In this document: positions 3,055 to 4,231 of the stretch, in pieces
How the letters are laid out: each line of letters begins with the position of its first letter
Numbering within the stretch: position 1 is the stretch's first letter
Virus record (IMG/VR): IMGVR_UViG_2859783438_000004
DNA length: 11,180 nucleotides
Reading direction: 5' to 3' (one strand)
Origin: a virus
Lineage: Duplodnaviria > Heunggongvirae > Uroviricota > Caudoviricetes
The notes under the pieces: model-generated
Databases searched by the model: none
The model's input: the letters and a program-made list of their open reading frames with translations, nothing else
What the model was told of the DNA's origin: nothing
Translations under genes and position numbers: made by a program

Positions 3055-3096
3055 AATAGCATCATTATTTTTTTTGATGTAAATAGCATCGCTATT
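3055..3096. promoter_or_regulatory. OL-like operator pair: two 15-bp sites matching AATAGC-N3-GCTATT
   Basis: AATAGCATCATTATT (3055-3069) and the perfect palindrome AATAGCATCGCTATT (3082-3096), 27 bp centre to centre; same motif recurs between the repressor and cro-like genes. Confidence 0.45.
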
Positions 3097-3114
3097 GTTT
3101 TTTGTTGGGGCAAG

Positions 3115-3136
3115 AAAAAACCACCCTAAGGTGGTT
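3115..3136 (-). terminator. Rho-independent terminator ending the repressor-antitoxin-toxin transcript
   Basis: On the minus strand AACCACC-TTAG-GGTGGTT followed by a T-run; sits 17 bp beyond the ParE-like stop at 3153. Confidence 0.55.
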
Positions 3137-3152
3137 CTGTCGGCGGGAATAA

Positions 3153-3428
3153 TTAACTGTTTTTGCCTGGATACTGTCTTCGAGAATGCACAATATTTAC
3201 TACTTCTATGCTTGATGCTGTTACTCGGTAAAGGATGATGTAGTTAGGATGAGTTACAATTTCACGAAGACCAAGAACTCGCTCGCTTGGAGGATACAGG
3301 TAAGGATGCTCTGTGAGCGGCAAAACGGATGTTTCAATTCGAATTTTCATTCTGCGTGCTGCCGCGGGATTTTCTTTAGCTATGTAGCTACGATCTGGCG
3401 CAAATCATCACGAGCAGATGGTAGCCAT
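3153..3428 (-). pseudogene. parE: ParE/RelE-family toxin ORF interrupted by two consecutive in-frame TGA codons after codon 6; only the C-terminal 65 codons (3153-3350) are open from an internal ATG
   Basis: Frame from ATG 3428 reads MATICS-stop-stop-FAPDRSYIAKENPAAARRMKIRIETSVLPLTEHPYLYPPSERVLGLREIVTHPNYIILYRV..; the YIA-x-(D/E)NP-x-AA and NYIILYRV segments are ParE-like. Stops are at 3410-3405. Full frame would be 91 codons. Confidence 0.65.
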
Positions 3429-3441
3429 AAAACGGGTAACA

Positions 3442-3636
3442 TTATTCACCTCTGTGAGTTGCAGCAGCAATTTGGGCAATAATTTGTTCCATTTCCGCCA
3501 TTACCTCATCATGCGGAATCGCCGGGCGGGGATCCGCGAGGCTTGCTGCTACTTTGGCCCGCAGCCATTCGTTGTAACTATTTTCTTGCTCAACTGTCTC
3601 AAATTCTGAAACCATTGGGGAAAGGACTGTACTCAT
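3442..3636 (-). CDS. paaA: PaaA2-like antitoxin (64 aa) of a ParE-type toxin-antitoxin pair
   Basis: MSTVLSPMVSEFETVEQENSYNEWLRAKVAASLADPRPAIPHDEV.. closely resembles my recollection of E. coli O157 PaaA2; AGGAG-type RBS upstream; lies 19 nt after the repressor stop and directly upstream of the ParE-like frame. Confidence 0.7.
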   Translation of the reverse strand: MSTVLSPMVSEFETVEQENSYNEWLRAKVAASLADPRPAIPHDEVMAEMEQIIAQIAAATHRGE

Positions 3637-3655
3637 TTTACATATCTCCTCTGAT

Positions 3656-4156
3656 TTAGGCGCGACGGCCTTTTTGTGCAGCTAACCACCGCGCAACCGT
3701 ACGATCCATTGATTCTTTTTTATCTTTCATCTCCTGAAGCATGTGTTCTTGATCTTCTTTCGGAAAAGCTCTGAACGTATGGATTAAATCTCGTTCCATC
3801 GGCTCTACGGCAAACGGTAGTTCATCCTCTGTTTGTTCTGTGTCTGCTGGTAATGCGACTATGTTATCTTGCTGTGGTTCTCGACAATACATCCTTGCAA
3901 TTTGCAGCAAATCTACCATGTCTGGCCTGATTGACTCAGGGGGAACTTTCAGTAAGCCAGCAAACTTTAGAACAGCCTCAAGGTTTAGTGGGGTTTGACC
4001 ATTTAGGTAGTGACTTACCGCCCCTTGTGTTGAAAACCCCATAATTTCCGCCGCACGTTCCTGAGTCAATCCCAACTGAGATTTCTTTGCCATCCAGATT
4101 TCTTTCAGTCTTCTGGCGGCGTTGAGGTCGGTGTCTGACAATGATTTTCTTTTCAT
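3656..4156 (-). CDS. Prophage repressor, HTH-XRE family, with no recognisable S24 peptidase domain (PaaR/RacR-like)
   Basis: HTH segment LGLTQERAAEIMGFSTQGAVSHYLNGQTPLNLEAVLKFAGLLKV; divergent from the cro-like gene across an operator-bearing spacer. Start taken at ATG 4156; the ORF track extends to a GTG at 4186. No GDSM-type serine motif in the C-terminal half. Confidence 0.8.
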   Translation of the reverse strand: MKRKSLSDTDLNAARRLKEIWMAKKSQLGLTQERAAEIMGFSTQGAVSHYLNGQTPLNLEAVLKFAGLLKVPPESIRPDMVDLLQIARMYCREPQQDNIVALPADTEQTEDELPFAVEPMERDLIHTFRAFPKEDQEHMLQEMKDKKESMDRTVARWLAAQKGRRA

Positions 4157-4191
4157 ACATCCAATTCTAATAAGATTGCTAATCACTTTGA

Positions 4192-4231
4192 AATAGCATC
4201 ACTATTTACTTTTAAAAATAACAGTGCTATT
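4192..4231. promoter_or_regulatory. OR-like operator pair between the divergent repressor and cro-like genes, overlapping a candidate rightward promoter
   Basis: AATAGCATCACTATT (4192-4206) and AATAACAGTGCTATT (4217-4231), each one mismatch from AATAGC-N3-GCTATT; candidate -35 TTTACT (4205-4210) and -10 TATTAA (4228-4233) with 17-bp spacing. Confidence 0.5.

Follow-up and report, generated by a model that had tools for sequence, protein, structure and literature searches.

Probable lambda-type operators in the immunity region of a degraded Shigella sonnei prophage related to CP-933P

The 11,180-bp stretch of viral DNA considered here (IMG/VR virus record IMGVR_UViG_2859783438_000004, Caudoviricetes; hereafter the window) encodes proteins that match Shigella sonnei at 99-100% identity. 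It contains a repressor gene and a cro-like gene that diverge from a 111-bp gap and whose products both match HTH_3. Four copies of a 15-bp palindromic motif, AATAGC-N3-GCTATT, bracket the operon to which the repressor gene belongs, two in the gap and two beyond the operon's far end. We think it very likely that a degraded lambdoid prophage of S. sonnei here has an immunity switch of the lambda type and that these sites are its OL and OR operators. Judged by its architecture, the region is a heteroimmune sibling of the immunity region of CP-933P, a prophage of Escherichia coli O157:H7, and would work in the manner of lambda OR and OL. An element of this type is ordinary. Its sites are very probably operators, and a limited literature search found no description of the particular DNA code, the AATAGC-N3-GCTATT consensus, for prophage repressors.

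An earlier note on this DNA, made from the letters alone, had pointed out the four copies and proposed that they are operators. Direct reading confirmed them (Table 1), and they proved to be the only matches to the motif in the window at two or fewer mismatches (exactly four in 11,180 bp, against 0.47 expected). All four lie in the two control regions, and only 1 of 200 dinucleotide-preserving shuffles reached four matches. The site at 3082-3096 has 6-bp arms that are perfectly complementary and a 3-bp center that is not palindromic. Centers are 27 bp apart in the left pair and 25 bp apart in the right pair, as the note had it and close to the ~23-24 bp that separates the operators of lambda. 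The note's description of the pairs as helically phased is loose: at 25-27 bp, the centers are ~2.4-2.6 turns of the helix apart, not a whole number of turns. Also as claimed, the two left-hand sites lie beyond a terminator of the repressor operon, a hairpin followed by a U-run that was missed by a consensus scan and revealed by folding, and the proposed promoter TTTACT-17-TATTAA is present at the right pair. The note had further assigned one pair of sites to each side. There is indeed a pair at OL and a pair at OR, but OR probably has a third, weak site, OR3, 23 bp from the site that begins at 4192, and is thus likely to be a three-site rather than a two-site operator region. At three mismatches the window holds 7 matches where 4.6 are expected; OR3 is not significant by itself, yet its position is kept in relatives.

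We gathered 68 loci encoding the N-terminal domain of the repressor without reference to the motif and added six later. Across these approximately 70 loci, identity in the DNA-binding domain of the repressor spans 100% to ~46-59%. Nearly all of the loci that keep the sequence QGAVSHY in helix 3 have one site ~75 bp and another ~50 bp upstream of the repressor ATG, and some have a third at -27, with two mismatches in the Citrobacter type and in locus L063 and three to five in the others. A second pair follows the operon terminator, whatever the length of the operon or the C-terminal domain of the repressor. It is found at ~+1050 in the E. coli/Shigella loci with toxin-antitoxin genes, at ~+915-950 in Citrobacter (a 240-amino-acid [aa] repressor alone), and at ~+525-565 in Yersinia and Rouxiella (153-156-aa repressors alone). 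In all, the motif stands at the same positions beside diverged repressor domains in Escherichia, Citrobacter, Yersinia, Rouxiella, and Pseudohongiella. Among 13 non-redundant QGAVSHY loci, the 86-bp zone upstream of the repressor gene contained 21 matches in 1.1 kb, and the remainder contained 6, all unpaired, in 80 kb. When twelve diverged upstream regions were aligned, conservation was concentrated in the arms of the three sites and in the promoter hexamers, and the cro-proximal leader could not be aligned. In 34 distinct sites A1, T3, and A4 are present at 100%, A2 at 93%, and C6 at 90%; position 5 is G or A, and the central triplet takes 17 different values.

The sites bear a constant relation to promoter elements. 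In every class of relatives, at both OL and OR, the final two T's of one site feed a TTGAC or TTTAC -35 element, and a second site, 24-27 bp on, enters a -10-like hexamer (TATTAA, TATTGT, or TAATAT). The -35 element of the rightward promoter PR is accordingly TTTAC or TTGAC in all classes, borrowing the last TT of OR2. These promoters face outward from the repressor operon, and OL always comes after a terminator (hairpin and T-run). Given this arrangement, could the repeats be AT-rich promoter or terminator sequence that was duplicated between PL and PR and has been kept by descent or chance, with no binding function? Their arms overlap -35 and -10 elements, so promoter function could explain part of the conservation, and many of the loci are close relatives. 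Nevertheless, dyad symmetry, the 15-bp register, and the 23-27 bp spacing persist where the surrounding intergenic DNA has diverged beyond alignment, and conservation is as high at the inner arm positions, which lie outside any hexamer, as at the outer ones. Moreover, wholly different palindromes stand at the equivalent promoters of heteroimmune relatives, and four matches were seldom reached in the shuffled sequences described above. We regard an origin without binding function as highly improbable.

The evidence from the proteins begins with the repressor, which is a chimera, as read from its sequence: a tail of the PaaR2 type follows an N-terminal domain like that of CI, and the protein differs in this from a classic cleavable CI. 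Homology to the DNA-binding domain of lambda CI, basic N-terminal arm included, extends over residues 2-81 (PDB 1lmb, 2.9e-9), and phmmer against the PDB returned 1lmb, 1lrp, 1rio, 3bdn, and 7jvt at E = 3e-9 to 2e-8 over query residues 2-81 or beyond. Pfam detected no Peptidase_S24 in the repressor, only HTH_3 and HTH_31, and the lack of an S24 domain excludes RecA-mediated autocleavage and SOS induction by it. Over residues 123-166 the repressor shares 52% identity with genuine PaaR2 of E. coli O157:H7 (E = 5e-15), whose locus (L124) we fetched with a 61-nucleotide (nt) 5'-end probe rebuilt from published primers. The rest of PaaR2, including its DNA-binding domain (MQKKEIRRLRLKEWF...), does not align with the window repressor. 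Residues 103-166 are 63% identical to a group of 132-aa proteins, the P0043 group, in which the same tail follows a helix-turn-helix (HTH) domain like that of 434 and P22. This group had been a candidate for PaaR2 itself and was ruled out because genuine PaaR2 starts MQKKEIRRL... (primers, PMC8630535 Table S3).

Other partners of the window-type N-terminal domain are found in relatives. In repressors of 240-244 aa from Citrobacter it is followed by a P0043-like HTH and then by the PaaR2-type tail (these tandem-HTH repressors are P0013-P0023, at loci L002 and L051-L054). No second operator code was found for the tandem-HTH repressors; their OR and OL contain AATAnC-type operators alone. Among more distant homologues, those of Yersinia and Rouxiella have a short helical tail, and those at L007 and L067 an S24 peptidase. 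The motif tracks the DNA-binding domain across all four architectures: PaaR2-type tail, tandem-HTH fusion, short helical tail, and S24 peptidase.

A separate case is L005 (Rouxiella sp. T17), whose repressor has an altered recognition helix, TQATVSQYLRG, and whose cro product has SQGYISLV. The motif is absent there, and AATACGCTT is common to the OR and OL zones. The locus may represent a natural specificity shift; as a natural control for a change of specificity the case is not clean and is suggestive only.

What happens when the repressor domain is replaced can be seen in the many E. coli prophages that share the window's flanks and not its middle. Homology of the flanks ends at 3038-3043, 12-17 bp to the left of the first site, and resumes at 4516-4521, which places the sites inside an exchangeable immunity cassette. 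At the level of megablast, no record in the phage collection matched the cassette; the flanks alone were matched. Three heteroimmune loci between the same flanks (L070, L071, and L072) have no AATAGC-type site at OL or OR but palindromes of their own in those places (ATACCCATGGGTAT-type in L071, for example); L070 and L071 have different repressors and cro genes as well. Nor was there any AATAGC-type site in P0043-type loci (L079-81), which have the same gene order including paaA2-parE, or at OL or OR of genuine CP-933P (L124). The half-site published for CP-933P, GTTTAGTAA, was not found in the P0043-type loci either, which fits a third specificity.

These loci bear on a further explanation, that the palindromes are autoregulatory operators bound by a complex of PaaA2 and ParE. 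The sites do bracket an operon that contains genes for a PaaA2 antitoxin and a ParE toxin, and it is a general property of classical type II antitoxins to bind palindromic sequences in the promoters of their own genes (see also PMC8630535). However, the same sites occupy the same positions in loci without toxin-antitoxin genes (the Yersinia, Rouxiella, and Citrobacter types and loci with S24-type repressors), whereas the motif is absent from loci that have homologous paaA2-parE genes with another repressor DNA-binding domain. In addition, PaaA2 is reported to have no DNA-binding domain (PMC8630535), and the ParE toxin is frameshifted in the window. Autoregulation by the toxin-antitoxin complex is therefore extremely improbable.

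We measured the background of the motif in control DNA totaling 77 kb, of which 50 kb came from the chromosome of an E. coli strain with this cassette. Matches occurred at 0.05 per kb, compared with a random expectation of 0.038 per kb; there was no match at one or fewer mismatches, and there were no pairs even at three mismatches. As far as this sample goes, then, the motif is not found at similar density elsewhere; a similar density would have spoken against the proposal of the earlier note. That proposal, with the sites as OL and OR, is instead supported at the level of sequence comparison by the enrichment of the motif, its conserved position beside diverged repressor domains, its absence from heteroimmune cassettes, and the chance-level background.

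The Cro-like protein appears suited to the same sites. It aligns with the N-terminal domain of the repressor (BLASTP E = 2e-7), and its helix 3, SQGMVSHV, resembles TQGAVSHY of the repressor, the two sharing QG-VSH. A homologous cro-like gene diverges from the repressor gene in most of the related loci inspected. The likeness in helix 3 and the conserved divergent gene fit shared operators. The Cro-like protein gave no BLASTP alignment with YdaS of O157:H7 at E <= 10 and no Pfam match to YdaS_toxin.

We also searched in the reverse direction: a double-site pattern with 20 specified bases and a gap of 8-13 was run against 2.9 million viral contigs. Forty-three stretches matched it. A homologue of the N-terminal domain was encoded in 29 of the 43 (tblastn), including new distant homologues at 36-55% identity in whose DNA the motif pair lies in OR-like or OL-like positions. 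Three further stretches are second pieces of contigs with the repressor in another stretch, and one gave a weak profile match. The motif is strongly tied to the N-terminal domain in these sequences, if not demonstrably exclusively.

The last result bears on the possibility that the sites are real and are read not by the repressor but by the Cro-like protein alone or by something else, for example YdaT or a nucleoid protein of the host. Binding by the repressor is our inference here, no homologue of the repressor domain could be detected in the DNA fetched around about 10 motif pairs from viral contigs, and a cro-like gene accompanies the motif about as regularly as the repressor domain. On the other hand, the motif follows the lambda-CI-like domain through the four protein architectures, and heteroimmune cassettes keep both ydaT and the host and lose the motif. 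The site of YdaT is different, with a perfect copy elsewhere in the window, at 4521-4538 (PMC9986795), and the QG-VSH signature common to the repressor and the Cro-like protein fits sites that are shared. We therefore consider it unlikely that the repressor is not among the readers. As for the orphan pairs, one (L092) lies inside an open reading frame (ORF) in DNA of 33% GC and looks like chance. The others lie in viral contigs of 47-61% GC, mostly between genes, and for that reason are probably real sites whose reader was not captured; the code may exist in unrelated hosts or be used by another protein family. Nine of the orphan stretches (L083, L084, L096, L099, L105, L111, L116, L121, and L122) have near-perfect pairs, 25-26 bp from start to start and mostly intergenic.

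With the sites taken as operators of a lambda-type switch, we propose the following scheme. Dimers of the 166-aa repressor would recognize AATA(G/A)C-N3-G(C/T)TATT, and the Cro-like protein, with its similar recognition helix, would bind the same sites. When bound at OR1 and OR2, the repressor would silence cro-ydaT and the replication genes yet permit or stimulate its own production, and OR3, over the repressor promoter PRM, could serve for negative autoregulation or be a site preferred by Cro. The OL sites, just past the terminator of the repressor-paaA2-parE operon, would overlap an outward promoter, PL, for the early-left operon that begins with ydfA. PaaR2 is reported to octamerize (PMC8630535); given the homology between the two tails, cooperative binding by the window repressor and looping between OL and OR over ~1.1 kb are plausible. 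Induction would take a route other than autocleavage, for example through an antirepressor; for PaaR2, a response to mitomycin C is reported to be absent.

Along with the orphan pairs, several points weigh against the operator reading or the scheme built on it. The matrix of sites is partly circular, in that sites were picked by their similarity to the pattern, and at L007 the sites have diverged further (three to five mismatches) although helix 3 is the same. OR3 is weak, having three mismatches in the window, and is degenerate (five mismatches) in the commonest E. coli type. The PL spacer, at 19 nt, is suboptimal in the window where near-identical relatives have 17 nt, and PL may be weak in this copy. 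The prophage is decayed, as IS1 fragments and the frameshifted parE gene attest, and its switch may no longer control anything of consequence. Finally, binding by the repressor and the Cro-like protein, its order and cooperativity, the activities of the promoters, looping, and the route of induction are matters that we infer.

Table 1. Operator sites, transcription signals, and genes of the immunity region
Feature	Position	Strand	Sequence or product	Remarks
OL1	3055-3069		AATAGCATCATTATT, 2 mismatches	Site farthest from repressor operon; outer arm enters putative PL -10
OL2	3082-3096		AATAGCATCGCTATT, 0 mismatches	In minus-strand reading, final two T's open PL -35
OR2	4192-4206		AATAGCATCACTATT, 1 mismatch	Adjoins PRM -35, overlaps PR -35
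OR1	4217-4231		AATAACAGTGCTATT, 1 mismatch	Overlaps PR -10
Candidate OR3	4169-4183		AATAAGATTGCTAAT, 3 mismatches	Over PRM spacer and edge of its -10
Putative PR	4205-4233	+	-35 TTTACT (4205-4210), 17 nt, extended -10 TGcTATTAA (TG 4225-4226, hexamer 4228-4233)	Faces cro-like gene
Putative PL	3053-3083	-	-35 TTTACA (3083-3078), 19-nt spacer, TGcTATTGT with -10 at 3058-3053	Leftward to ydfA
Putative PRM	4164-4192	-	-35 TTCAAA (4192-4187), 17 nt, -10 TAGAAT (4169-4164)	From promoter scan
Intrinsic terminator of immunity operon	3111-3138	-	GAACCACC-UUAG-GGUGGUUU, then U-run	Fold -15.1 kcal/mol, z = -2.6
Repressor gene	3656-4156	-	166 aa	Pfam HTH_3
paaA2-family antitoxin gene	3442-3636	-	64 aa, intact	Pfam PaaA2 3e-23; PDB 3zbe PaaA2 1.4e-23; 75% identity to O157 PaaA2 over 56 residues
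parE-family toxin gene	3153-3442	-	Frameshifted	Pfam ParE_toxin 1e-7 on 65-aa remnant
cro-like gene	4268-4531	+	87 aa, HTH	Weak Pfam HTH_3
ydaT-family gene (CII analogue)	4528-4953	+	141 aa	Pfam YdaT_toxin 5e-9; PMC9986795, PMC8630535
ydfA (DUF1391)	2721-2927	-		Pfam DUF1391 3e-28; first early-left gene that PL would drive
YdaT recognition site	4521-4538		TTGATTCATGAAAATCAA, perfect	Junction of cro stop and ydaT start; right edge of immunity cassette

The putative promoters of the window fit this layout. PR was not listed by the promoter consensus scan because its -10 element ends in A. From the end of the PRM -10 element to the ATG at 4156 the distance is 7 nt, so that the repressor mRNA would be leaderless or nearly so, and a -10-like hexamer is kept at an equal distance from the repressor ATG in all classes of relatives. 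The center of OR2 lies 42-43 bp upstream of that ATG. We presume PL to be active by analogy with PL933P of CP-933P (PMC8630535). In an intact E. coli relative the early-left operon has the order ydfA-ydfB-ydfC-dicB-exonuclease-integrase; on the other side of the window's cassette, replication genes lie to the right of the ydaT-family gene.

The toxin gene has suffered a 1-bp deletion between 3388 and 3387, as seen in alignment with intact 96-aa copies; the resulting frameshift leads to an early stop, and parE is likely a pseudogene here. Thus, the ParE toxin appears to have been inactivated in this S. sonnei copy and the PaaA2 antitoxin to have remained intact.

The closest known system is that of CP-933P (also Sp12) of E. 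coli O157:H7, in which PaaR2-PaaA2-ParE2 is found with YdaS-YdaT (Jurenas et al. 2021, PMC8630535). There, PaaR2 and YdaS bind OR and repress PR, PRM, and PL, as demonstrated by EMSA, footprinting, and reporters, and the paaR2 mRNA was shown experimentally to be leaderless (PMC8630535). The window has the same layout, with a cro analogue and ydaT on one side and the repressor, PaaA2, ParE, a terminator, OL/PL, and the DUF1391/ydfA operon on the other. Both repressors have the tail in common (52% identity over the last 44 residues) and have no S24 domain, both systems have operators at OR as well as OL, and the start of the window's repressor gene is laid out for a leaderless mRNA as well. The antitoxins are 75% identical, and the toxin of a relative in which the gene is intact is 67% identical to ParE2. 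YdaT is also shared, with its TTGATT-N6-AATCAA site (as published in PMC9986795), and so is the conserved leader downstream of PL. The differences lie in specificity. The DNA-binding domains of the repressors are unrelated (lambda-CI-like in the window, MQKKEIRRLRLKEWF... in PaaR2), and the Cro analogue of CP-933P is YdaS, whereas the Cro-like protein of the window has no detectable similarity to it. The operators of CP-933P are 18-bp palindromes with half-site GTTTAGTAA (PMC8630535), compared with AATAGC-N3-GCTATT in the window, and they number three, plus four inverted repeats, at OR and three at OL, compared with two or three and two, respectively. Lastly, the toxin gene is frameshifted in the window copy, unlike that of CP-933P. 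A paper by Hallez et al. 2010 reportedly describes PaaR1, the O157 paralogue of PaaR2.

On this comparison, the CP-933P switch is one among several heteroimmune versions built on one chassis, with the DNA-binding domain, Cro, and the operators swapped as a block. For the window's version we provide an operator consensus and a promoter map. This immunity type is common in prophages of E. coli and Shigella and has a ParE-family toxin-antitoxin system inside the immunity operon; a repressor 78% identical to that of the window (P0009) is indexed in thousands of blocks of an assembly collection. The consensus and the map could be used in predicting superinfection immunity and cross-regulation among co-resident prophages in pathogens. 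No concept is changed by them: lambda-type operators are textbook biology, and their identification here is useful for annotation and unsurprising.

The region can also be compared with lambda itself. In lambda, the divergent promoters PR and PRM are governed by three dyad-symmetric sites, the weak third one over PRM, and a second set of operators lies at PL, past the immunity operon. CI at OR1 and OR2 represses PR, the position of OR2 lets CI activate PRM, and OR3 serves in negative autoregulation or is preferred by Cro; the cI mRNA is leaderless. The window has the same features: three sites, at intervals of 23-25 bp, at the putative PR and PRM, OR2 centered 42-43 bp upstream of the putative PRM start, a weak third site over PRM, an OL set at PL, and a layout for leaderless repressor mRNA. 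It differs in the sites themselves, which are 15 bp long with a 3-bp center and unrelated in sequence to the 17-bp lambda sites with their TATCACCGC-type half-sites, and in having two sites at OL instead of three. Its repressor has no S24 autocleavage domain, unlike lambda CI; the cargo of its immunity operon is a toxin-antitoxin pair where lambda has rexAB; and YdaT stands in the place of CII.

The distribution of domains and sites invites a broader reading. The N-terminal domain, the AATA(G/A)C-N3-G(C/T)TATT operators, and the matching Cro may form a portable specificity cassette that has been joined to at least four C-terminal domains, while at least three unrelated HTH domains have come to be combined with the PaaR2 tail and the toxin-antitoxin cargo, such that immunity specificity and induction or oligomerization are exchanged independently among enterobacterial prophages. 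We offer this tentatively, being slightly more inclined to doubt it than to believe it. If it is true, the operator code is in use well beyond the enteric bacteria, as the pairs in viral contigs of 47-61% GC would suggest.

Some variation among close relatives involves the sites. In loci L008-L016, whose repressors are 99-100% identical, the A/T tract between the OL sites (3070-3081 in the window) varies in length. OL spacing there is 24, 25, 27, or 28 bp, and the PL spacer changes with it, from 17 nt to the 19 nt of the window; the variation could reflect true slippage or homopolymer sequencing error. The arms of OR2 are polymorphic in the near-identical L008, L010, L011, L015, and L016, with zero, one, or two mismatches, which suggests either that operator strength is being tuned or that it is decaying.

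Downstream of the putative PL, the leader at ~2930-3043 on the minus strand (CAACCCACCCCGCCCCACAGAATGCAGGGCAATACTTCGAGTTACC...) is 90-94% conserved in heteroimmune prophages, including CP-933P, and marks the left mosaic boundary. Its folding as RNA is unremarkable (z = +0.9), and there was no Rfam match in it.

Finally, we note a module in the left part of the window that is a candidate for the induction route of a repressor without an autocleavage domain. Rfam identified a C4 antisense RNA at 1065-1152 (minus strand, 76.7 bits) and an isrK small RNA (sRNA) at 1177-1253 (minus strand, 61.2 bits), directly upstream of a Phage_pRha ORF at ~516-1004 (minus strand). We take this layout of C4, isrK, and Rha to be that of an sRNA-controlled antirepressor module, of the kind presumably represented by c4-ant of P1 and isrK of Gifsy-1. 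In the Gifsy prophages of Salmonella and the c4-ant system of P1, the repressors lack a cleavage domain and antirepressors inactivate them. The window resembles them in its repressor without S24 and in its C4 antisense RNA, isrK sRNA, and Rha-family gene, which are laid out as in such a module; it differs in having IS1 remnants on both sides of the module, which may be truncated. A similar ORF lies downstream of OL in the Citrobacter locus L002. The remnants are two copies, 99-100% identical, of an internally deleted IS1-like element, at 98-~530 and 1772-~2200, which lie 1674 bp apart and bracket the sRNA/Rha module. Each contains an ORF of 119 aa, which we take to be the N-terminus of InsA joined to the C-terminus of InsB of IS1.

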